From Candidatus Iainarchaeum sp. (GTDB lineage: Archaea > Iainarchaeota > Iainarchaeia > Iainarchaeales > JAFCCW01), in assembly GCA_017609985.1 (NCBI GenBank), contig JAFCCW010000006.1, positions 1-41,876 on the forward strand: DNA of 41,876 nucleotides, written 5' to 3'. Position 1 is the first letter of the stretch. The number at the start of each line of letters is the position of its first letter. Of the stretch, positions 1 to 12,786 are shown piece after piece. The translations under genes and the position numbers were made by a program. The notes beneath the pieces are model-generated. The model was not told where the DNA came from. It did no database searches and saw nothing but the letters and a program-made list of their open reading frames with translations.

Positions 1-3000
1 GACGGCAACTATTCTGATGGAGACTGGCTTGTGGACTTGAATGCAACTGACAATTCCGGAGAGGTTCCGATTGAGTCAATTTCTTCACAACCAGTTAACT
101 CCTTTAACCTTAGCACTGGGCTAATTTCTGCATGGAACTTTGATGAGGGAAGCGGAACAGTAGCATTTGATGCGAACAGAATAGGAGCAAGAAACGGAAC
201 TCTAACAAACGGTCCAGCTTATATTGATTCTCCTTTTGGCACTAATGCGCTGAGCTTTGATGGGGACGATGACTTTGTTTCAGTTTCCAATACCACTGTT
301 TTGAATGATGGCGGTGGATTTGAAGAATTGTCTGTTTCTTTCTGGATTAAAAGCTTTGCTTTTGAATCGCCAGAGGCAGGAGCCTATGTTCTATCCAAAG
401 ATGCTTCCGGAGCTAATACAGGAGATGCGTCTTTTATTTGGGATCACGATACTGTCAGAAACAGTCACTTAATATTTTTTGAACAAGTTCCTAATGTTCA
501 GGTTGGATTTCCCACTTCAGACATGGGCATTGGGAATTGGCAACATGTTGCATTTACAAAAAACAGTTCAGGCATTGGAAAAATATACCTAAATGGTGTT
601 GAAAAGGAAAGCAAAGGAGGGTTTACCGACAATTTATGGGGCAGTTCTACAGATTTGCAAATAGGAAGTGTTCTTGGAGATAGTTTATACAATTTTAATG
701 GTTTAATAGATTCTTTGCAAATTTATAAACGTGTTCTTTCAGCAGATGAAATAAAAGAACTGGCTGGACGCGTGATTGTTGATAATTCTCAGCCGCATTG
801 CTATGTTCCCTCTACGATGATGCGAATCTTGTTGGATTGTGGCGAATGGAGGGAGGAAATCCAGACCAAGATATTTCAATTGTTGACGGCTCAGGCAATG
901 GGAACAACGGGGTGATGCACAATTTCAACTATGATTCAAGCGACGGCTGGGTTAACGGCAGGATAGGCAGAGCATTAAAGTTTGACGGAAGCAATGACTA
1001 TGTTTCCTTATCTTCTTCTCTTACAAATGGGCTTTCTTCCTTCAGTGTCGCTCTTTGGATAAAGACAAGCGAAACAGGAACTTGTGCTAATTACTGGGAA
1101 TGCCCCTGTGTTATGGGTGTTGGGACTGGTGGTTTTGCAAGCAATGATTTTTCAATTTTAACCGATTCTGGAAATCTTTCATGGTATTCTGGCCTGGGAG
1201 CATCAGGCGATAACCAGGAAGTTTTGGGTAAAACAGTTTCTGATGGGGAGTGGCATTTTATTGTAGTATCCAATGATGGAAGCAATCTAGACCTTTATTT
1301 TGATTCGGAAAAAGTTTCTTCTTTTTCCAGCGACGGAAGCGGATTGGATTCACAGCCTTTTTACATTGGGGCAAACAACAACGGAGGTTCACCAAACTAC
1401 TATCATGAAGGGACTATTGACGAGCCAATGGTTTTCTCCCGTGCTTTGAATGCAGCTGAAGTCTATGAGCTTTACAAGACACAGCATGTACGTGATGACG
1501 TGAATGTGTTTGTTTCAACTTATTGTGAGGATGGAGGGAGTGTTGGAATGGCTTGGATGATCAGAATACTTCAATTGTTCAGTTGTTCAATGATGGCAAT
1601 GGATTGTATTCTTTGATTCACCCAATTTCTGCAAGCAATTCTTTGAATGATGGAAATTATGAAGTTTCTCTTGCGCGCGTTTCCGACAGAGCAGGAAACA
1701 GCGGAGCGATTGGAGAGCGAACAGACGACTGGCCATACAACCACTTGCTTTTGTATGCGAGTTTTGATTCGAATGAGACTGTTTCTGGCAGTGTTATTGA
1801 CAAGAATTTTTCACTGGACTGGTCTGATGGTGATGGCAACTATGAGGTTCACGGCGCTGCTCGCAGGGCTGGACGAGACTCAAATGCCTTGTTGTTTGAT
1901 GGCGTGGATGATGAAATAACTTTTACTCTTGCATTGGATAATAAAGTTACTTTTGAATTTTGGCTTTATTATGTGGGGGGTGTAGCTTCTGTTATTAGAG
2001 ATAATACTTCTAGTGATGGCTGGATAATAGGGTGGGATAATTCTGGAACCTGGACATATAGAATCAATGGAACCTCTGTTGGCACTGTTGCCACTAACAC
2101 TCTTATTAATCGATGGTCTCATCATGCACTGACGTTTGATGGAACAAACTCAAATTATTACATTGATGGTATTTTGGTCAAAACAGATAGTTCTGCCAGT
2201 TTTGGAGCTAACATCGCACCATGGCATTTAATGAAAAATGGAACCAGTGCTTCAGGTTATATAAATGGATTACTTGATGAGGTTGCCATCTACGATGTTG
2301 CTCTTGATGGCAATACTATCCTTAATCAGTACAATGCTTTCAAGGTGAATTATTCTGATTCGGAGGATGGCAATTCTATTTACTTGGACAACACTGCTCC
2401 GTCTGCTCCAACGTCTGATGCTAATGTTGAATGGACTGCTAGTGATGGAAACGTTACACTCACAGAGCCCTCAGACAATTCTGGGGTTAAATGCATATAC
2501 AGGCGTGATTCTGATTCTGGTCAGGACACAAACTCGTGGACAGCAATGCTTGGATACGATTCAAATATTTTCTTTCCCTGGCTGGGCAACAATACAGAAT
2601 ATTACAGGCTTGACGCAAACTGTGTTGACGGAGCAGGAAACTGGTCGCCGACACTTTTTGACATAGTTCAGTTAGGGACCGGTCCAAATAAGGCTCCTGA
2701 TGTAAATATTGTTTTGCCAAATGGGAGTGAGACATGGGATATTGAGTCAAATGATTATAATCATTTAATCAAGTTCACGGTTTCCGATGCTGATGGGAAT
2801 CATTTGACTGCGCACTTGTATTATTCGAGTGATGCGAATTCGTTTGAGAATTCAATTATTGATTTAAACCTGCATTGGATTGGTACTGCTGGCAATCAAA
2901 CAGTCGATGCAAACTGTGAAGACAATGACTTCTCCAATTCAACTGAATGCTGGTTTGATGTTAACGTATTCGGTTGGGGTAAGGGTGATTATTTCGTTGA

Positions 3001-5779
3001 TGTGAATGTCTCAGACTCAAGTGACTCAAACGCAGTTGACTCAAGCGACTCAAGCTTTTCAGTGATTATTTCCAGCGCGCTGTGTGGGACAACGATTACT
3101 GGCAATACTACTCTAACCGAGGATATGACTGATTGCACAGGAGATGGTTTAATTATCGGTGCTGATTCGATTACTCTGGATTGTGATGGGTATGGCATAT
3201 ACTCTGATGGTTTGGCTACCAGTGGAGAGAACGGAATTGACATGACTGGTTCTTATAACACAATCACTATCAAGAACTGTGACATCAATGGCTTTTATCG
3301 TGGAATAAACTTTGATGATCGTGGAGCAGACTCAAATATTTACAGATGCAATATTACCTACAACGTCGAGATTGGAGTTCGCTTGGATGATGCGGACAGA
3401 ACTGTTATACAGGACTGCAATATAAGAAACAATGTAAATGACGGGATTTTTGTCACAAGCGCTCCTGATGTAAGCATCTTTGATAACAATGTTTCGGCTA
3501 ACCAAGACAAGGGAATGTACCTGCATATAAGCAGTGACTTCAATATAATGAACAATATTATTGAAGACAATTCAGATGACGGAATCTGGTTGTATGAAAG
3601 TGATGATGCGTACATAAAATCCAATCATTTTTCAGGAAATGGTGGTGTTGGCTTTGAAGCAGCTTACTCTGTTGACAACCTGTTCTTCTCAGACAATAAT
3701 TCAATTGAAAACAATTCAGCAGGATTTAATTCAAGAAATGGTTGTTCAAATTCGACTATTTCCGACAACAATTTTTCTGCAAACACATCTTCAGGGATAT
3801 CTGGTGACGGGTCACAAACCCATGATAATAATTTTTCCAACAACATAATCAAAAACAATGGCTCTTACGGGATTTATTTTACAAATGGTCCAACAGACAA
3901 CAACTTTTACAATGAAATAATTGAAGACAATGATGCTGGATCACAGGGAATCTGGCTACAAGCATATTCTGGGCTGGTGGGAGACAACAGGTTTTTTGAC
4001 TGCAACATCGGAGGGCATACAGACGACTTTTATCTAAAGGGACGATCTGGAGTCAGGGACATGAATTCCTTTTCAATAGGGACAAATTTTACTACTGTGA
4101 ATTTTGGCGATGCAAATGGTTTCCTCTACGTTGGCTGGTGGCTGGATGTGAATGTGGTTGATGGTTCAACTTCTGCTGTGATTGATGGTGCGACTGTTAC
4201 AATAACTGATCAGTATGGTTTGGAGAAATGGTCTGGTTCAACAAATGCGAACGGTGTGATTACAAGACAATATGTATTTGATTACAACCAAAATTCTGAT
4301 GGACAAAACTCCTACTCTCCTTATGATATCAATGTAATCGTAACAGGTTACGACACAAACGGAATGACTGTTTCAATCGACGAGAATAAGGAATTGACAA
4401 TCAGAATGGCTGACCATACTGTGCCTACAATATCTAGTTTAATTCCTGCTGATGGCTCTAGTGTTTCTGCTCAGACAGTTTCCTTCACTGTTTCAGATGC
4501 AGGCAAGGGAGTTGACTCTGGAACAATTTTTGTTAAGTTAGGGGGTGTTGCAAGCTCTGTGTTCAGCTTTGCAACTCATTGCTCTGGCTCGTCTGCTTCC
4601 TATTCCTGTTCTTATACTGAAACAGGGATTGCCACAGGAAGCAATACTTTGACTGTTGATGCTGACGATTCTGCAGGAAATTCTGCTGTACAGGCTTCTT
4701 CTATATTTACATATTCCACTGGCTCTAGTCCTGATGACCCCAATCCTTCGTATGTGTGTGGTGATGGTGGCTGTCAACCAGGAGAAAATTGTTCTAACTG
4801 TCCAATGGACTGTGGAACCTGTTCAACTGGCGGAGGCGGTTCAGGCGGCGGAAGCGGTGGAGAAGGCGCAAGCACGCCAGCAGAGAAACTTGGTTTGGGC
4901 GCATTCTGCAATATTGATTCAGTCTGCGAATCAGGCGACTGCATTAACCACTTCTGCGGAGACTGCTACGACACAAACGATTGTGAACAAGACGAGCAAT
5001 GCACAAACAATGTATGTTCTCAAATTGCAGGAGCCTGTGGTCATGCTATAGGACATGAATGGTTTGAATATGAATGCTGCAGAAACGAGGACTGTGAGGG
5101 CGGCAGAGTTTGCACAGAAAACCATAAATGCGAAATAACTGATGAAAGCATTTTGTATGTAAAGTTTGACCCAGAAAAACCTGTTGAAGGAGAACAATTC
5201 AAAATATTCATTTACCAGACAGGAAATATATTAGTGGAGAACGTAAAAGTTCTAATAGATGATAGAAATTATACTGCAATAAACGGCACTCTCTCAAAAG
5301 TATTGGATGGAGGACTGCACAGAATAGATGTGAACAAGCAGAATTACAAGTCAGACAGCTTTTGGTTCAGAGTATACAAGAAAGCCCAGCTTATAGTTAA
5401 AGCTGAAGCTCCGGAAGTAGGAGACTTTATTCCAATTGTTCTCAGAGATGATGGTGGAAATCCCTTGAAAGAAGTTGAGGTTCTGGTAATCCTGCCAGAT
5501 GGCTCTGAAAGAGTAATGAAAACAAACAAGGAAGGAATTGTTTACATTCAAAGTCAGGTTGCAGGAAAAATTGAAGTAAATCTTCCAAAGTACACTGGAT
5601 ATCTTCCAATTTCTCACGAAATAAATATTTTGGAAACAGGTTCCCTTGGCGGGGGCTTGTCTGAATTCCTTGTTCCGGCGATAGTGCTTTTTTCAGTGCT
5701 GTTATTGCTTGTGGGAATTCAGGTTTTTGGAAAAAGAGGTGGAAAATCTGGACTGGACTTGGTTTCAGATGAAATCTGA
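1..5779 (+). CDS. Very large cell-surface protein, 5'-truncated by the window edge. Three LamG/concanavalin-like domains, Ig-like segments, right-handed beta-helix (NosD/pectin-lyase-like), Cys-rich region, Gly/Ser linker and C-terminal membrane anchor. Split into three ORFs (1-915, 798-1616, 1553-5779) by two -1 frameshifts.
   Basis: Frame 1 is open from base 1 (DGNYSDGDWLVDLNATD). LamG signatures recur (WNFDEGSG...ALSFDGDDDFV...WQHVAFT...YLNG...FNGLIDSLQIY; GLWRME...ALKFDGSNDYV...WHFIV; LLFDGVDD...WSHHALTFDG...GLLDEVAIYD). Also CGDGGCQPGENCSNCPMDC, and a hydrophobic FLVPAIVLFSVLLLLVGIQVF followed by GKRGGK at the C-terminus. Sense continues across CCC 808-810 and GGG 1536-1538 if one base is added at each. 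Confidence 0.8.
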
Positions 5780-5785
5780 CATAGC

Positions 5786-5793
5786 TTTAAATA
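5786..5793 (+). promoter_or_regulatory. TATA box of the trp leader/operon
   Basis: TTTAAATA lies 30 nt upstream of the uORF ATG at 5823, similar to the TATA-to-start spacing of other near-leaderless genes in the window. Confidence 0.7.
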
Positions 5794-5822
5794 AAGTACT
5801 GTTCAAATTATTTCTGAGACCT

Positions 5823-5858
5823 ATGAAAAGAAGGGATTTACTTTGGAACTTTCTCTGA
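5823..5858 (+). CDS. trp leader peptide uORF MKRRDLLWNFL (11 aa, one Trp codon)
   Basis: ATG AAA AGA AGG GAT TTA CTT TGG AAC TTT CTC TGA, directly after the promoter and upstream of trpE. Confidence 0.75.
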   Translation: MKRRDLLWNFL

Positions 5859-5913
5859 TTCTCTAAATAAATCTAGGCTCTCAATTAAAACAAATAGAAG
5901 GGATTTACTTTGG
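5829..5913 (+). repeat. Perfect 18-bp direct repeat AGAAGGGATTTACTTTGG (5829-5846 and 5896-5913)
   Basis: 18/18 identity, period 67 nt (3n+1), unique 49-nt spacer. Confidence 0.97.
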
Positions 5914-5964
5914 CTATTGCCACTCAGATATTGCTCTTTTTACTAATTCAGGACGTGGTCTTAA

Positions 5965-7674
5965 ATGAGTTTAGGCCTTGTTCTGCAGTCAAAGAAGGGA
6001 ACAATTATACCAATAACCAAGACAATTCACGCTCCTGGCTTTAATCCCACAGAGTTCTTTTCAAAAATTTCAGACTATGGGCGAAACAAGGGCTCAATTC
6101 TTCTAGAGTCAGCTGACGTGGTTCCAAAATACGGAGAAAACTCAATTGGGTCTGCTTCTCCCTGTCTAAGTGTTTCAGGAAAAAAGGAAAACTTTGAAAT
6201 AAAATCACTTAACTGCACTGGAAACAGATTTTTAGAATTCATTTCCAAAGATTTTGGATTCTGCAAAAATGTTCAGGTTTCCAAAGAAGAGATTTCTGGA
6301 AAACTGTCACCATGCTCAAAAAATATTTCTGAAGAAGAAAGACTTTTTGAAAAAACCCCTGCTGATGTGCTGAGAGCAATAGCTTTCAAATTTAAACCAA
6401 GCCTCAAACCTTTAACCCCCTATGCTGGTTTGTTTGGAAGAATAAGCTACGACTTTGTTGAACAATTTGAAGAACTTCCTGCTCCGCAAAACAAAGGATT
6501 TGAATATCTTGAAGGATTCAAAAGCTTTGAAGACTTTGACTACGAACTTTACTTTTTTGACAATCTGTTTTCTTACGATCACAAAACAAAACAGTTAACA
6601 TTTGTTTCAAATGCGCTGATAACAAACGGAGACCGGGAAAAAATCTATCAAGACTGCATTAACAAAATTTCAGAATACGAATCTTTTTTCTCAAAAGAAA
6701 AACCTGTTTCCCTAAAACAAGCAATCAAAAACAAAGAAATCTCAACAGACACTTCAAAACAGGAATTTATTAAAGTTGTTGAAAAATGCAAAGAACACAT
6801 TCTCTGCGGAGATGTCTTTCAAATAGTTCCTTCACGTACTGTCTCGCAGGAATTCTCTGCAGAACCGCTTGACATTTACTCAGAACTTAGATCCCTGAAT
6901 CCTTCACCCTATATGTTTTTCATGCACGGAGAAGAAGGAATCCTGCTGGGAAGCAGTCCGGAAATGTGCCTAAGGGTACAGGGCGAGCAAGAAAAAACAG
7001 TGGAAATAAGACCAATTGCGGGAACAAAACCGCGCGGAATAATTGAGGGAAAACCGGATAAGGATCTTGACTCACGCTATGAAGCAGAGCTCAAGGTTGA
7101 CAGAAAAGAGTTAGCAGAGCACACTATGCTGATAGATCTTGCCAGAAATGATATTGCGCGCGTTAGCAAATCAGGAAGCAGGCACGTTGATGAACCATTT
7201 GTTGTAGAAAAATATTCTCACGTCCAGCATTTGGTAAGCAATGTTTCAGGCAAACTCAAACCAGAACTTGACGCAATGCACGCATATCTTTCATCGATGA
7301 ACATGGGAACACTTACTGGAGCTCCAAAATTAATGGCAATGCAACTTCTCCGAAAATATGAAAAAACAAAACGCGGATTTTATGGAGGCTGCATTTGTTA
7401 TCTTACTCCAAGCAAGGACTTTGATTCAGCAATCGCAATCAGAACAATGTTTTTGAAGGACAAAACAGCTTTTGTACGTGCAGGGGCAGGAGTAGTTTTT
7501 GACTCAATTCCTGAACAGGAATTTCTTGAAACAGAGAACAAGATGAAAGCCTGTTTTGAAGCAATCAGGCGAGCGGAAGAAAAGGCAGGCGAAGCAGAAA
7601 AACAAGCAGTTAAGTCAGAAGAAAAACCAGAAAACAAAGCACCCAAGGCAGGGGAAAAAGAGGTGAAAGCATGA
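5965..7674 (+). CDS. trpE: Anthranilate synthase component I
   Basis: LLES and NPSPYM Trp-feedback motifs, GDVFQIVPSR, PIAGT, KELAEHTMLIDLARND, MNMGTLTGAPK, AGAGVVFDS. Confidence 0.97.
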   Translation: MSLGLVLQSKKGTIIPITKTIHAPGFNPTEFFSKISDYGRNKGSILLESADVVPKYGENSIGSASPCLSVSGKKENFEIKSLNCTGNRFLEFISKDFGFCKNVQVSKEEISGKLSPCSKNISEEERLFEKTPADVLRAIAFKFKPSLKPLTPYAGLFGRISYDFVEQFEELPAPQNKGFEYLEGFKSFEDFDYELYFFDNLFSYDHKTKQLTFVSNALITNGDREKIYQDCINKISEYESFFSKEKPVSLKQAIKNKEISTDTSKQEFIKVVEKCKEHILCGDVFQIVPSRTVSQEFSAEPLDIYSELRSLNPSPYMFFMHGEEGILLGSSPEMCLRVQGEQEKTVEIRPIAGTKPRGIIEGKPDKDLDSRYEAELKVDRKELAEHTMLIDLARNDIARVSKSGSRHVDEPFVVEKYSHVQHLVSNVSGKLKPELDAMHAYLSSMNMGTLTGAPKLMAMQLLRKYEKTKRGFYGGCICYLTPSKDFDSAIAIRTMFLKDKTAFVRAGAGVVFDSIPEQEFLETENKMKACFEAIRRAEEKAGEAEKQAVKSEEKPENKAPKAGEKEVKA

Positions 7675-8291
7675 GTGAAAAAAACATCTTGAGTGGAAAG
7701 AATTTGAATGTGTTATTCATAGACAACTTTGATTCCTTTACTTATAATCTTGTTGACGAATTTTCAAAAAAAGGATGTGAAGTAACAGTTTACAGAAGCA
7801 ACACTCCAATAGAAAAACTTGAAAAAATTTCAGAAAAAAACAAAACAGGTCTTGTTGTCATCAGCCCTGGCCCAGCTTCTCCTAAGGAAGCAGGAGCAAG
7901 CATGCCTGCAATTGAATCATTTCTTGGAAAAATTCCTTTGTTTGGAGTTTGCCTCGGTCACCAATGTTCAATAGAAGCATTGGGTGGAGTGGTGGAGAGA
8001 GCTCCAGAAACAATTCATGGAAAACCTTCAAATATTTTCCACGACAACAAAACAATTTTTAAAAATCTGCAAAACCCATTCAGCGCAGGCAGATATCATT
8101 CTCTTTGCGGAACAAAAATTCCAGACTGCTTAGAGGTTTCTGCAAAAACAAACAATGGAATTGTAATGGCGGTAAGGCACAAGGAACATTTTCTTGAAGG
8201 AGTTCAGTTTCATCCTGAAAGTATTCTGACTCCGGAGGGAAGCAAGATAATTGAAAACATAATTGCTCTGGCGGTGGAATTCAATGATTGA
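7671..8291 (+). CDS. trpG: Anthranilate synthase component II (glutamine amidotransferase)
   Basis: IDNFDSFTYNL, ISPGP, GVCLGHQ, RYHSL, QFHPES; ATGA overlap with trpE. Confidence 0.97.
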   Translation: MSEKNILSGKNLNVLFIDNFDSFTYNLVDEFSKKGCEVTVYRSNTPIEKLEKISEKNKTGLVVISPGPASPKEAGASMPAIESFLGKIPLFGVCLGHQCSIEALGGVVERAPETIHGKPSNIFHDNKTIFKNLQNPFSAGRYHSLCGTKIPDCLEVSAKTNNGIVMAVRHKEHFLEGVQFHPESILTPEGSKIIENIIALAVEFND

Positions 8292-9300
8292 AGAGCACAT
8301 AAAAAAGATAGTTGGAGGAAAAAATCTTTCAAGACAGGAAGCAAAGCAGGCATTTTCTGAAATAATGAATGGGGAAGCATCGCCAGTTCAGGTTTCTGCG
8401 CTGCTTGTCGCTCTTAGAATGAAGATTGAATCAATTGAAGAAATTTCCGGAGCAGCAGATGCAATGCGTTCTGTTGTTGCAGAAGTCAAACCAAAAACCA
8501 AGGAGTTATTGCTTGACATTGTGGGTACAGGAGGGGATGAAAAAAATTCATTTAACATAAGCACTGCTTCTGCTTTTGTTGCTGCGGGAGCTGGGTGCAG
8601 AGTAGCAAAACATGGGAATCGTTCTGTTTCAAGCAATTCAGGTTCAGCAGATGTTTTAGAAAAACTTGGAATAAATATTGAATGTTCTGCTTCAAGGAAT
8701 GCAGAAATTATTGATAAGTGCGGGATAGCATTCATGTTCGCTCCCAATCACCACCCTGCAATGAAACATGCAATGCCTGTGCGCAAAGAACTTAGAATAA
8801 AAACAATTTTCAATATTCTTGGGCCCCTCACCAATCCTGCAAAAGCTCAGACAATCTTATTGGGGGTTTATGGAGCAGAGCTTGCAGAAAAGCTTGCTTT
8901 GTCTCTTGCAGGTCTTGAAATAAAAAAAGCACTTGTAGTACGCGGAGTAGACGGCTTTGATGAAATATCTGCCTGCAGTGAGACAACTGTCTTTGAAGTT
9001 TCAGACAAAGAAGTTGAAAAAAAAACTATTTCTCCGAAACAGTTTGGGTTTGAAAGATGCGCTGAAAAAGAACTCCTTGCATCTGATTCAGAGGAATCTG
9101 CAAGGCACATTAAAAATGTTTTATCGGGACAGGACAAAAGTGGAAAACTAACTTCTGTCTTGCTGAATGCTGGGGCGGGAATTTATGCAAATGGAAAAGC
9201 AGAAACAATTTCTGACGGAATAGAGAAAGCAAGGCAGTCAATTATTTCAGGAAATGCTTTGTCAAAAATTGAAATACTTGCGGAGTTGACAAATAAATGA
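8284..9300 (+). CDS. trpD: Anthranilate phosphoribosyltransferase
   Basis: DIVGTGGD, FNIST, KHGNRSVSS, GSADVLE, FNILGPLTNP. Start placed at ATG 8284 (ATGATTGA overlap with the trpG stop, preceded by GGCGGTGG). Confidence 0.96.
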   Translation: MIEEHIKKIVGGKNLSRQEAKQAFSEIMNGEASPVQVSALLVALRMKIESIEEISGAADAMRSVVAEVKPKTKELLLDIVGTGGDEKNSFNISTASAFVAAGAGCRVAKHGNRSVSSNSGSADVLEKLGINIECSASRNAEIIDKCGIAFMFAPNHHPAMKHAMPVRKELRIKTIFNILGPLTNPAKAQTILLGVYGAELAEKLALSLAGLEIKKALVVRGVDGFDEISACSETTVFEVSDKEVEKKTISPKQFGFERCAEKELLASDSEESARHIKNVLSGQDKSGKLTSVLLNAGAGIYANGKAETISDGIEKARQSIISGNALSKIEILAELTNK

Positions 9301-10064
9301 TCCTTGAAGAAATTGCAAGACACAAGAGAGGAGAGATAGTCTGCATGAAAGAGCGTCTTTCAGACAATCCATTTAATGGAAACCTTGAGAAGAGCAACAG
9401 GTCTTTTCTTGAAGCAATAAAGGGAAAATCCAGCGTGTCTCTTATCGCTGAAATAAAAAGAGCTTCTCCGAGCAAGGGGCTTATTCGAGAAAACCTTGAT
9501 GTAAAATATGTTTCAGGACTTTACAATAAATATGCGGATGCAATATCTGTTGTAACTGATGAACTGTTTTTTGCAGGGCATCCAAGTCTTGTGAAGAGTG
9601 CGAAACTATATTCTCAAAATCCAGTTCTTAGAAAAGACTTTCTTGTAGATGAGCTACAGATAAAAGAGTCAAGATTTTTAGGAGCTGATGCTGTTTTGTT
9701 GATTGCTTCTCTTTTGTCAGCAGACGAAATAGCAAGATTTATTGACACTGCCAGCTTTTATGAAATGGATTGTTTAGTGGAAGTTCACAACAGGCAAGAG
9801 CTTGAAAAAGCTGTCTCCGCAGGCTCGAAAATAATAGGCATTAACAATCGGGATCTTCAAACATTTAAGGTTGATGTTTCAACAACAACCAAGCTGGCTG
9901 GACTTGTTCCGTCTGAAAAAATCCTTGTAAGTGAGAGTGGTTTTTCTTCAAGGCAGGAAATAGACAAGATGCAGGGAATTGCTGATGCTGTGCTGGTTGG
10001 CACAAGCTTGATGGAATCTGAAGATCTGGAAAAAAAATTAATGGAGTTGTCAAACAATGACTGA
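9297..10064 (+). CDS. trpC: Indole-3-glycerol phosphate synthase
   Basis: IAEIKRASPSKG, LRKDF, GADAVLLI, LVEVH, GINNRDL, SESG. Confidence 0.97.
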   Translation: MILEEIARHKRGEIVCMKERLSDNPFNGNLEKSNRSFLEAIKGKSSVSLIAEIKRASPSKGLIRENLDVKYVSGLYNKYADAISVVTDELFFAGHPSLVKSAKLYSQNPVLRKDFLVDELQIKESRFLGADAVLLIASLLSADEIARFIDTASFYEMDCLVEVHNRQELEKAVSAGSKIIGINNRDLQTFKVDVSTTTKLAGLVPSEKILVSESGFSSRQEIDKMQGIADAVLVGTSLMESEDLEKKLMELSNND

Positions 10065-10710
10065 AGTAAAGATTTGTGGTCTGACAAACAGCGAAGATGC
10101 AAAAACAGCACTCTCGCTCGGAGCAGACTATTTAGGGTTTGTTATTGAAGCTGATTCTCCAAGGAGCATTTCCTCAGAGTTTGCTCGAAAAATAATTTCA
10201 GAACTGTCATCCTGTAAGACTGTGGCTGTCACAGTCTCTGAAAGTGTTTCAGAAATTCAGAAGCTTGTTTCAATTTCCGGAGTATGCTTTGTTCAGATTT
10301 CAGTTCCGCTTTCGCAGGACAAATTTGTTCAGCTAAAGCAAGCTCTCCCTGAAAAAGAATTTATTCAAACTGTTCATGTCTGTGAGCCAGAACTAGATTC
10401 AATCAATCCAGCGAAGCAAGGCATTGATTTTGTGGAAGAAAACGCTGATTTTGTACTGCTTGATTCAAGAGCTGGTGCGGGGTTGGGTGGTACTGGAAGA
10501 ACACATGACTGGAATAAAAGTGCAGAGATTGTCAGAGGTTCTTCAAAGAAATTCTTTTTGGCTGGCGGGCTTAATCCTGAAAATGTTTCTGAGGCAATAC
10601 AAAAAGTCAAGCCCTATGCTGTTGATGTTTCAACAGGAGTTTCGTTTGATGGAGTAAAAAAGGATTTTGAAAAAATGAAAAAATTCATTGAGGTGGCAAA
10701 GAATGGTTAA
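10057..10710 (+). CDS. trpF: Phosphoribosylanthranilate isomerase
   Basis: [43 protein letters not shown]. Confidence 0.96.
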
Positions 10711-11902
10711 GAAAAGATTTGGAGAATTTGGCGGAGTGTTTATGCCTGAAACTCTCATGGCAGCAATAGACGAACTCTCAGATGCGTTTTATTCCGCAAT
10801 AGAAGATAAAGAATTCAATTCAGAACTTGAAAGTTTGCTGAAAAAATATGTAGGAAGACCAACTGCGCTCACTAAAGCAGAAAATCTCAGCAGAAAACTT
10901 GGCTGTGGAATCTATTTGAAAAGAGAGGATCTTGCTCACACAGGCGCCCACAAAATAAACAATGCTCTTGGACAAGCACTGCTTGCAAAGCGAATGGGCA
11001 AGAAAAGAATAATTGCAGAGACTGGTGCTGGACAGCATGGCACAGCAGTTGCAACTGTTGGAGCAAAGCTAGGTCTTCAAACAGAAATTTACATGGGTGA
11101 TGTTGATATTGAAAGACAGAAGCCGAATGTTTATAGAATGAAACTGCAGGGGGCAAAAGTGAACCCTGTTTCAAGCGGAAGCAAAACACTTAAAGATGCA
11201 ATAAACGAGTGCCTGCGCGACTGGACAGCGAGTGTTGAAACAACACATTATCTTCTTGGAAGTGTTCTTGGACCAGCGCCATATCCTGACATGGTTGCAT
11301 ATTTCCAAAGCATTATTGGCAAAGAAGCAAAAAAACAGTTTTTAGAGGAAACAGGTGTTTTGCCTGACTCAGTTGTTGCCTGTGTTGGCGGGGGAAGCAA
11401 TGCAATAGGAATTTTCAGAGAATTTGTTGAAGACAAGGAAGTAGAACTTCTGGGAGTTGAAGCAGGGGGCATGGGAATTGAAACAGGAAAGCATGCTGCC
11501 AGATTTGCAGACCCTGAATTTGGAAGGCCTGGGATCTTGCACGGTTCTTTTACTTATGTTCTTCAGGACAAGTTTGGGCAGATATACAATACGCATTCTG
11601 TTTCAGCAGGGCTTGATTATTCAGCTGTCGGGCCAGAGCACGTGAGATTAAGAGAGCTGGGCAGGGCAAAATATGGCTATGCTACTGATGAACAGGCACT
11701 CAATGCCTTCAAAATGCTAAGCGAACAAGAGGGAATAATTCCGGCGCTTGAATCAGCCCACGCTGTTGCCTATGTAATAAATCATGCCTCTGATTTTAAG
11801 GGAAAACAAGTAATAATTAATCTTTCGGGAAGAGGAGATAAGGATATTTTCCATGTGGCAAAAGAAACTGGAGAAAGCATAGGGCTGGTGGTGAAAAAAT
11901 GA
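10703..11902 (+). CDS. trpB: Tryptophan synthase beta chain (TrpB1 type)
   Basis: [22 protein letters not shown] (PLP lysine), [32 protein letters not shown]. Start at ATG 10703 after GAGGTGG. Confidence 0.98.
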
Positions 11903-12786
11903 AGCGAATTGAGAACAGATTTGAAAATAGATCTGAGGGCGGATTTGAGAATAGATCTGAGAGGATACTTGAAAATAGATTTGAAAAAAGATTTTTAGAA
12001 TTGAAGAAAAAAAACGAAGCAGGTTTCATGCCTTTTGTTGTGTTGGGAGACCCAGATTTTGAAACATCTTTTAAGATAATGAAAGCCTTGATTGACTCGG
12101 GAGCAGACGCTTTGGAACTAGGTTTTGCTTTTTCAGACCCTGTTGCAGACGGTCCAACAGTTCAGGAGGCAGGACAGCGGGCATTGAAGGCAGGAAGCAA
12201 TACTTTAAAGTGTCTTGAACTAATTAAGAGGATTCGTTCTGAAAACAATGAAATTCCAATAAGCCTTTTGCTCTATGGAAATATTGTTGTTCAGCATGGA
12301 ACAGACAAATTTTATTCAGATTGCTCAACTGCGGGAGTTGATGCGGTTCTTTTAGCAGATGTTCCTGCTGAAGAATCAGACGAGTTTGTAAAATCAGCAA
12401 AAAATTATGGAATAGAACCAGTGTTTATTGTGTCTCCAACAACAGAGGAAGAGCGCCTTGGAACAATTATTGAAAAAGCAGGTGCTTATGTTTATCTTGT
12501 GGGAGTTCTTGGAGTGACTGGGGCAAGAATTGAAGTGCAGAATATGACTGTAGACCTAGTTAAAAGAATAAAACCGAAAACAAGTCTTCCAGTTCTTGTC
12601 GGCTTCGGGATATCAAGTTCTAGAAATGTAAAGAATGTTATTGAAGCAGGAGCAGACGGGGCAATAGTTGGGAGTGCAATAGTTCAGAAGATAAAAGACA
12701 ATCTGGGCAACTCTGAAAAAACAATTGAAGAAATCTCGGATTTTGCACGCGAGCTCAAAAAAGCAACACTTAGTGCACGCCCTTGA
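11899..12786 (+). CDS. trpA: Tryptophan synthase alpha chain with a repetitive N-terminal extension
   Basis: [43 protein letters not shown]; ATGA overlap with trpB. Confidence 0.97.
11911..11994 (+). repeat. Seven degenerate 12-bp tandem repeats (consensus GA[G/A]AATAGAT[T/C]T, peptide ENRF/ENRS) in the 5' end of trpA
   Basis: GAGAACAGATTT GAAAATAGATCT GAGGGCGGATTT GAGAATAGATCT GAGAGGATACTT GAAAATAGATTT GAAAAAAGATTT. Confidence 0.9.

Follow-up and report, generated by a model that had tools for sequence, protein, structure and literature searches.

Repeats ahead of an archaeal trp operon as candidate codon-swappable +1 frameshift sensors of aminoacyl-tRNA

The tryptophan operon carried by a 41,876-nucleotide (nt) stretch of Candidatus Iainarchaeum sp. 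DNA (contig JAFCCW010000006.1; this whole stretch is called the window below) is preceded by a short leader with two identical 18-nt repeats. We conclude that these repeats are probably two serial copies of a modular leader cassette which, judging from comparisons of related sequences, senses a single aminoacyl-tRNA by programmed +1 frameshifting. We take it as nearly certain that the cassette acts in one way or another as a cognate-codon sensor. A wider reading seems to us reasonably likely, namely that a modular and codon-swappable frameshift sensor is used here in place of attenuators and T-boxes: the peptide M-x-RRDLL followed by one codon would turn scarcity of an aminoacyl-tRNA into a +1 shift that activates the matching tRNA, synthetase and biosynthesis genes, two cassettes in series would make a sharper gate, and some ribosomes would read through the tRNA gene to the start of the synthetase gene. 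The mechanism so proposed is a variant of prfB- and Ty1-type +1 shifting, for which we found no precedent as a control of amino-acid supply.

The leader consists of a TATA-like box, a short upstream open reading frame (uORF), two cassettes and the successive frames that connect them to trpE. In the list below, ORF denotes an open reading frame, SD Shine-Dalgarno and aa amino acids.

5786-5793 (+): TATA-like box TTTAAATA, 37 nt upstream of the uORF ATG
5823-5858 (+): leader uORF in frame 0, MKRRDLLWNFL-stop, ending at TGA 5856-5858 in the stop context CTGATT (5855-5860)
5829-5846 (+): cassette 1, AGA AGG GAT TTA CTT followed by TGG, with the proposed P-site codon at 5841-5843 and the sensor codon at 5844-5846
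5845-5946 (+): middle (+1) frame, GTFSDSLNKSRLSIKTN-RRDLLW-LLPLRYCSFY-stop, with no start codon before cassette 2
5896-5913 (+): cassette 2, the identical 18-mer, lacking its own ATG and spaced 67 nt (3n+1) from cassette 1
5912-5968 (+): final (+1 of +1) frame, GYCHSDIALFTNSGRGLK-stop, whose TGA at 5966-5968 overlaps the trpE ATG (ATGA)
5937-5941 (+): run of five T within the last leader frame, where archaeal oligo-T termination might take place
5946-5989 (+): predicted hairpin in which the SD-like AGGACGTGG (5950-5958) is paired with early trpE codons and the ATG lies in the loop
5965-7674 (+): trpE, anthranilate synthase component I, 569 aa
7671-12786 (+): trpG, trpD, trpC, trpF, trpB and trpA, as overlapping or abutting ORFs

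Matches to Pfam identify the operon behind the leader (5965-12786) as trpE-G-D-C-F-B-A. An earlier note, made from the letters and the open reading frames of this DNA, had read the leader as two prfB-like cassettes, and its description of the anatomy is accurate in each part. The TATA box and the uORF MKRRDLLWNFL are where it placed them, and the 18-mer AGAAGGGATTTACTTTGG occurs exactly twice in the window, at 5829-5846 and 5896-5913, with a spacing of 67 nt. By chance, about 0.10 matches to this 18-mer with up to three mismatches are expected, and two copies were found in 0 of 100 shuffles. Reading +1 after the CTT of cassette 1 gives GTFSDSLNKSRLSIKTNRRDLLW, a stop-free frame up to TAA 5944-5946; because this frame runs into copy 2, the second copy is read in register, and only by a ribosome that has already shifted at cassette 1. 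Normal decoding of the second Trp codon ends at the same TAA, and another +1 shift leads through GYCHSDIALFTNSGRGLK to the TGA that lies on the trpE ATG (5965-5967). The first shift is followed by 22 codons up to cassette 2 and the second by 18 codons up to the UGA of the AUGA. We also confirmed that a slip of -1 at cassette 1 ends at TAA 5864-5866. No ATG, GTG or TTG is present in the middle frame from its stop at 5824 to a TTG at 5917, or in the final frame from its stop at 5864 to TGA 5966, in agreement with the claim that these frames lack starts.

A contig of strain X1 (95-99% similar) covers positions 5771-6400 and presents both cassettes and the 67-nt spacing unchanged. It contains a 1-nt insertion behind 5950 with three substitutions close by; as read from the contig, its last frame ends ...N-L-W-V-W-S-stop, with a TAA that abuts the ATG rather than forming ATGA. 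By its sequence, X1 keeps the stop/start junction in another form. Within the predicted stem 5946-5989, whose positions 5949-5954 have a pairing probability of about 1.0, all the substitutions in X1 preserve pairing (5/5; contig read against the fold). The last frame of X1 also shows, at about window positions 5948-5964, a W-x-W motif that is found in relatives.

We searched for the cassette in 215 genomes of this small phylum; the genome of the window itself, 86.6% complete, amounts to 1.16 Mb in 37 contigs. Within the order, a 15-mer core, AGAAGGGATTYACTT, was found at 45 sites in 35 of 196 genomes, against none for the reversed control, and neither pattern was found in the remaining 19 genomes of the phylum. 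Thirty-nine of the 45 sites are in a leader context. The other six were not counted in the family: L102 (TTG), L121 (AAT), L122, which is inside an L2-like ORF, and L119, L120 and L123, which have no ATG (L numbers denote loci).

Cassettes share one layout: an ATG, five to six codons, AGA AGG GAT TTA CTT and the sensor codon. The nearest in-frame ATG is six to seven codons upstream of the sensor codon in 46 of the 59 cassettes of the collection. Counting backward from the sensor codon, conservation is almost complete at G-9 (59/59), A-8 (58), T-7 (58) and C-3 (59), and high at T-2 (53) and T-1 (53). At the level of nucleotides the core is nearly invariant; the residues encoded ahead of it vary (R, G, S, C). 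The earlier note had singled out the synonymous CTT as a test of its proposal: this codon stands immediately before the sensor codon in 53/59 cassettes, including both copies in the window, against 41% of the Leu codons in the window's genome, which encodes a tRNA-Leu(GAG). The other cassettes present CCC (2), CCG (3) or CGC (1) at this position. A TTTAAATA-like box is found in relatives too, 29-38 nt upstream of the uORF ATG (counted by eye).

Upstream of trpE, relatives belonging to other families of this order carry a short uORF ending in GAT-NNA-CTT-TGG, and a tRNA-Trp gene often lies between this uORF and trpE. Forty of 80 trpE loci were examined, after dropping 36 whose best segment had at most 42% identity to the query and four that matched from inside trpE. 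A cassette was found at 21 of these 40 loci, three of which have less than 170 nt of upstream sequence. In a separate set of loci, eight hold the trpE 5' end: five present the cassette, one (L009) presents a CCC TGG variant and two (L006 and L011) have none. The genome of L011 carries its cassettes 3.9 kb upstream, at trpD (L137).

The sensor codon is the variable part of the cassette: over the 59 cassettes it is TGG in 42, CCN in 9, CAY in 7 and TGC in 1. It agrees with the genes located downstream at 37 of the 39 leader sites, as follows.

TGG: 22 sites, 21 fitting; tRNA-Trp at 15, trp enzymes at 6 and one ambiguous intron-bearing tRNA (called Arg by aragorn)
CCA, CCT or CCG: 9 sites, 9 fitting; tRNA-Pro at 3, proC at 3 and proB at 3
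CAC or CAT: 7 sites, 7 fitting; tRNA-His at 6 and HisG at 1
TGC: 1 site (L138)

The trp enzymes behind TGG cassettes are encoded by trpE, trpD or a trpB-like gene. When a tRNA gene comes first, the next gene encodes TrpE in 12 tRNA-Trp loci, histidyl-tRNA synthetase (HisRS) in 5 tRNA-His loci and prolyl-tRNA synthetase (ProRS) in 1 tRNA-Pro locus (L136). The genome of the window itself has a Pro cassette, MTERRDLL-P-VVLFKH (G000:C35:38053-38070 on the minus strand; L003 at about 1400-1560, minus strand). It lies about 150 nt upstream of tRNA-Pro(UGG), tRNA-Pro(GGG) and a gene for a proB-like amino-acid kinase. Behind this kinase gene we noticed a 106-aa ORF fragment that resembles the N-terminus of ProRS by eye and has no match in Pfam. 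The TGC site, L138 (G024:C4), is a tandem with Cys codons, RRDLL-C followed by RRDLV-C with GTT replacing CTT, and its next +1 frame is an ORF of about 130 aa, putatively winged-helix-like by eye.

The frames that follow the sensor codon are strongly asymmetric. Frame 0 ends a median of 4 codons past the sensor, and the +1 frame remains open for at least 26 codons in 57/59 cassettes, against 5/59 for the +2 frame and 21% of trials with shuffled sequence. Cassette 2 of the window, which has 18 codons before the trpE ATG, and the first of the two L138 cassettes are the exceptions. Several loci encode an enzyme directly in the +1 frame: TrpE in L008, L045, L055 and L193, ProB in L124 and L125, a TrpB-like protein in L100 and L118 and, after two shifts, TrpD in L137 and HisG in L098. 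The first canonical start in the enzyme frame is at codon +18 in L098, +20 in L125 and +59 in L137, and those of L125 and L137 fall inside conserved domains. In L008, the TrpE frame has starts only upstream of the shift, namely a TTG at -10 and a GTG within the cassette at -4. The +1 frames encoding TrpE, HisG, ProB and TrpD in L008, L098, L125 and L137, respectively, have no usable start of their own.

In 13 leaders, the stop of the +1 ORF (18-121 codons) either overlaps the start that follows or abuts it:

ATGA at trpE: window, L021, L064
TAG-A-ATG at trpE: L054
ATGA at proC: L108, L116, L129
TGATG or ATGA at hisS: L104, L128, L135
ATGA at a TrpB-like gene: L099
ATGA or TAATG at a second cassette: L124, L125

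The +1 ORF of the His cassettes in L104, L128 and L135 is open through the entire tRNA-His gene and stops on the hisS start, a hint that translation may cross the tRNA in transcripts not yet processed. The +1 ORF in L099, which follows a Trp cassette and is 121 aa long, has a weak sub-threshold match to the ADP-dependent serine kinase SerK (ParB-like).

Tandem cassettes were found repeatedly for Trp, His and Pro. Where the second cassette has no ATG, it is located 3n+1 from the first in 4/4 tandems (the window, L098 for His, L137 for Trp, and L138). The tests on leaders that the earlier note had named, namely the conserved CTT, the spacing, the open intermediate frame and the stop/start overlap, therefore all came out as it predicted, other amino acids included.

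From these frame relations we infer the shifting itself, its response to aminoacyl-tRNA and the control of the tRNA genes behind leaders. The short uORF, starting near the 5' end of the transcript, would set CUU in the P site and the UGG sensor in the A site. With ample Trp-tRNA, UGG would be decoded and the ribosome would stop three codons on, far from trpE. With scarce Trp-tRNA, the waiting ribosome would slip +1 from CUU to UUU in the manner of prfB and Ty1; for the family at large, peptidyl-tRNA-Leu would slip from CUU to UUN when the A site at the sensor fills slowly. The shifted ribosome would reach cassette 2 in register, and a second shift would lead to the UGA on the trpE AUG. A ribosome in this final frame would open the hairpin hiding the trpE ribosome-binding site and could reinitiate, turning trpE on, and its passage may also guard the transcript from early termination at the T run. 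The Trp dependence of shifting and the sharpening of the response by two sites, both suggested by the earlier note, would be consistent with this scheme. In relatives, the Pro or His version would gate tRNA genes, aminoacyl-tRNA synthetases and first pathway enzymes, with the downstream gene activated by fusion, by termination-reinitiation or by the opening of structure. For leaders located before tRNA genes, ongoing translation might relieve early termination at T runs, which is the weakest step of the scheme.

The conserved SD-like GNGAU, ending about 2-3 nt upstream, would pair with the 16S 3' end GGAUCACCUCCU and may assist the shift. The comparison bears out this part of the earlier proposal only partly. 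Eleven cassette variants, related to each other, pair with the 16S 3' end of the window's own genome (GGATCACCTCCT) at -6.3 to -13.3 kcal/mol, the pairing ending 1-2 nt before CTT; these energies are modest, as random 24-mers give -4.4 +/- 2.2 kcal/mol against the same end and 21% of them reach -6.

The cassette resembles the prfB site in its short frame-0 stretch, its CUU in the P site, its presumably slow A-site codon and a purine-rich stretch, possibly SD-like in action, a few nt upstream. At prfB, the shift occurs on CUU followed by a slowly decoded codon, with an SD-like stretch about 3 nt upstream of the shift codon that pairs with the 16S 3' end. That A-site codon is the stop codon UGA, which the product of the gene itself reads, and the site senses a release factor from inside the regulated bacterial gene. 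The cassette differs in that its A-site codon is a sense codon that would report on aminoacyl-tRNA, in being modular (Trp, Pro or His), mostly located in leaders and archaeal, in occurring as two in series and in that it would gate tRNA genes and whole operons. Because of the sense codon, it is not a member of that class, although it would be prfB-like in its working. In the passages of PMC5009743 on prfB, the frameshift acts as both sensor and effector and the useful product is in the +1 frame. A functional product in the +1 frame is likewise present in relatives (TrpE, TrpD, HisG, ProB), and the +1 frames of the window encode only a leader peptide ending at the trpE ATG. Another parallel is the Ty1/ABP140 site CUU_AGG_C, where the same source, in the part concerned, describes a P-site CUU next to a sense codon of a scarce tRNA (PMC5009743). 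Unlike the cassette, Ty1 sets a product ratio, does not control arginine supply and has no cognate link between codon and gene. Antizyme is also described there as a sensor-effector +1 shift, near the end of a short ORF1 (PMC5009743, in the section on it); it senses polyamines, shifts at a stop codon and is eukaryotic, in contrast to the cassette.

Several observations weigh against the frameshift reading. Six of the 59 cassettes present CCG, CCC or CGC before TGG, and these do not fit simple P-site slippage because CCG and CGC cannot re-pair in +1. Such sites would require out-of-frame binding in the A site, as at Ty3. Some of the fused enzymes have plausible starts of their own shortly after the cassette (ATG/TTG at +11/+12 in L118 and L100, TTG at +9 in L055) or a Met soon after the shift that is a possible start (10th residue in L045, 9th in L193), and trpE of the window could be translated independently since it has its own ATG and an SD-like stretch. 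The route by which a translated frame would control a tRNA gene is a further difficulty, and RNA polymerase runs ahead of a ribosome that is held at a hungry codon. The leader of the window as a whole folds no better than its shuffles (z = -0.26). In one genus (L119, L120 and L123, with CAT CAC), the cassette has neither an in-frame ATG nor an open +1 frame and would be either a relic or put to another use. The W-x-W motifs and hairpins of many Trp leaders suggest a further layer outside the frameshift model, and a GC-rich hairpin found ahead of tRNA-Trp is not explained by it. Finally, the counts overstate independence because the genomes are related.

Some features of these leaders deserve separate description. 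The Trp loci L018, L019, L028, L051, L054, L060, L021 and L064 form a sub-family of leaders with M-x-SDC-(P/R/L)-W and CCG, CCC, CGC or CTT before TGG. The +1 ORF of many Trp leaders ends in W-x-W (for instance YAWHWL, YSWRWR or FWVWVWRCS; L103, L106, L107, L109, L115, L130 and others), placed in a small predicted hairpin with the +1 stop in its loop; this motif could be a second check on Trp or a structural element. Between the +1 ORF and tRNA-Trp, L103, L109, L117 and L130 share a conserved GC-rich hairpin, ATCGAGCC-loop-GGCGAAGAT (from folds, by eye), which is possibly a protein-binding or processing element; it has no match in Rfam. The cassette of L119, L120 and L123 sits upstream of a glycosyltransferase-like ORF.

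Stalling of the ribosome on the leader peptide without any frameshift, as in trpL/hisL attenuation or at ermC, could alter downstream folding or termination; we consider this reading unlikely. It would draw on the short uORF with a cognate codon near the 5' end in 56/59 cassettes, on the five or more consecutive T that lie between the sensor codon and the +1 stop in 45/59, on the tandem Trp codons (W-x-W) and hairpins further down many Trp leaders and on the own starts of some downstream genes. Yet stalling leaves unexplained why nearly all cassettes keep the +1 frame open rather than the +2 frame, why second cassettes without ATG are positioned at 3n+1, why TrpD, HisG and ProB lack starts in the +1 frame and why the +1 stop meets the next ATG in 13 leaders. 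The W-x-W codons themselves sit in the +1 frame, which has no start. As in bacterial trpL, hisL and pheL attenuation, a leader ORF ahead of the biosynthesis operon includes the codon for the amino acid under control, and a translating ribosome would gauge charged tRNA; unlike the trpL type, there is one sensor codon and no run, and the read-out is apparently a change of frame. The tandem cognate codons of trpL are absent from the window uORF, which has one frame-0 Trp codon. No terminator/antiterminator pair was found in the window leader, which does contain the T run at 5937-5941, a possible terminator, and a hairpin across the start of trpE. For amino-acid operons, a 2016 survey of frameshifting puts forward E. 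coli pheL as the strongest previous candidate for a productive shift and treats that shift as incidental (PMC5009743; PMC3082878). At the ermC leader, a ketolide-induced shift makes ribosomes run on, which unfolds the mRNA and permits downstream initiation (PMC5009743, in the section on this leader); its inducer is an antibiotic, it is bacterial and it has no cognate-codon logic, unlike the cassette.

Compared with programmed frameshifting, a sensor made of RNA only, in which the triplet pairs with the anticodon of a charged or uncharged tRNA and the leader switches its fold in a T-box manner without a ribosome, appears very unlikely. T-boxes recognize their amino acid through a triplet that resembles a codon, and their regulons include synthetases, biosynthesis and related genes; the set of tRNA, synthetase and biosynthesis genes found here resembles such regulons. 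The triplet also agrees with the downstream tRNA, CCA standing ahead of tRNA-Pro(UGG) in 3/3 loci. T-boxes differ from the cassette in being bacterial RNA structures that bind tRNA directly and work free of the ribosome. The Rfam T-box model, with its stem I, specifier loop and T-box/antiterminator, gave no match with cut-offs of E <= 10 for window positions 5500-6300, E <= 1 for L003 and E <= 0.1 for the leaders of five relatives, and Rfam returned only tRNAs and sub-threshold noise in the window leader, L003 and five relatives. No conserved structure was found around the triplet, in line with the z of -0.26 of the leader. A sensor of this type gives no role to the ATG at six to seven codons, the early frame-0 stop or the coding relations of the +1 frame.

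It is also highly improbable that the repeats are a DNA operator bound by a TrpY-type repressor or an activator, the frame relations being accidental. The two identical 18-mers do lie downstream of the TATA box, where archaeal repressors often bind, and a second TATA-like sequence, CTCTAAATAAA, lies between them. An amino-acid-specific DNA-binding protein does not explain why the same cassette serves Trp, Pro and His with only the codon swapped. Most leaders contain a single copy, and an operator would make the frame statistics and the junctions a coincidence. In Methanothermobacter, TrpY acts at palindromic TRP boxes between the divergent trpY and trpE; the gene upstream of the window leader encodes a 1408-aa beta-helix protein on the same strand and not a divergent regulator. 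The second TATA-like sequence is at 5861-5871, 76 nt after the first, and could be an internal promoter or part of a conserved CTGATTCT...T-rich block of relatives.

A box C/D guide RNA co-transcribed with its target tRNA, the C box being ATGA and the D box CTGA, is barely credible. In its favour, tRNA-Trp introns of other archaea are known to contain C/D RNAs, the uORF begins with ATGA in 7/8 leaders inspected by eye and CTGATT follows in several. Against it, CTGA lies anywhere from 5 to 20 nt from the cassette (by eye) instead of the fixed spacing of RUGAUGA and CUGA on either side of a 10-12 nt guide, just 8/59 cassettes have CTGATT as the context of the frame-0 stop, the cassette is not complementary to tRNA-Trp (by eye) and the best Rfam match is a sub-threshold SNORD60 (18.6 bits against a gathering threshold of 42; E = 1.3).

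We extended the search for frameshift cassettes beyond the 15-mer core. A fuzzy search of the window's genome with an 11-mer core gave 3 exact matches and 21 with at most one mismatch. The match on contig C3, inside a 590-aa ORF, was taken as chance, and so was a candidate on C34 from a relaxed scan, which is inside a glutamyl-tRNA-synthetase-like ORF. A scan of metagenomes with the cassette anchored on ATG returned at least 115 stretches, of which 80 loci were listed. The gap was out of frame in 52 of the 80 listed loci, and most of the in-frame loci were attributed to chance (e.g., seven gut-metagenome contigs inside a transposase-like ORF). Only L142, L190, L193 and L200 look real among these 80 loci, and none of the 80 presents a further sensor amino acid. 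No tRNA-Trp was found in the window's genome, with or without intron search; this does not show its absence, because the genome is 86.6% complete.

To our knowledge, the sensing of amino-acid supply in most archaea is poorly understood, and we know of no archaeal equivalent of attenuators or T-boxes. No published description of such cassettes was found in full-text searches of the literature covered, which includes only a minority of subscription journals. A 2021 review, in the part that treats Archaea, gives a single -1 case as the only programmed frameshift reported there (PMC8211752). If the frameshift reading is correct, the cassettes would be the first case in which cellular genes of Archaea are regulated by +1 frameshifting, and no earlier natural system would be known to control amino-acid supply in this way. 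Small genomes of the DPANN type would then carry a compact and portable sensor, with a single codon determining what it responds to, which synthetic biology could use as a designable part, and the sensing of aminoacyl-tRNA by frameshifting could be tested with simple reporters. It would also account for the seemingly truncated or start-less TrpD, HisG and ProB of metagenome-assembled genomes and would call for caution with gene callers on such genes.

The surroundings of the operon present two further features. Upstream, the 1408-aa ORF (1553-5779, plus strand) contains Laminin_G_3, NosD and beta-helix domains and a hydrophobic C-terminal stretch, and it ends 7 nt before the TATA-like box; its product is probably a surface protein. 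Downstream of the operon, five tRNA genes are found between 13612 and 25563: Ala-CGC, Ser-TGA, Ser-GGA, Leu-GAG and Arg-TCT. The tRNA-Leu(GAG) is likely the reader of CUU.

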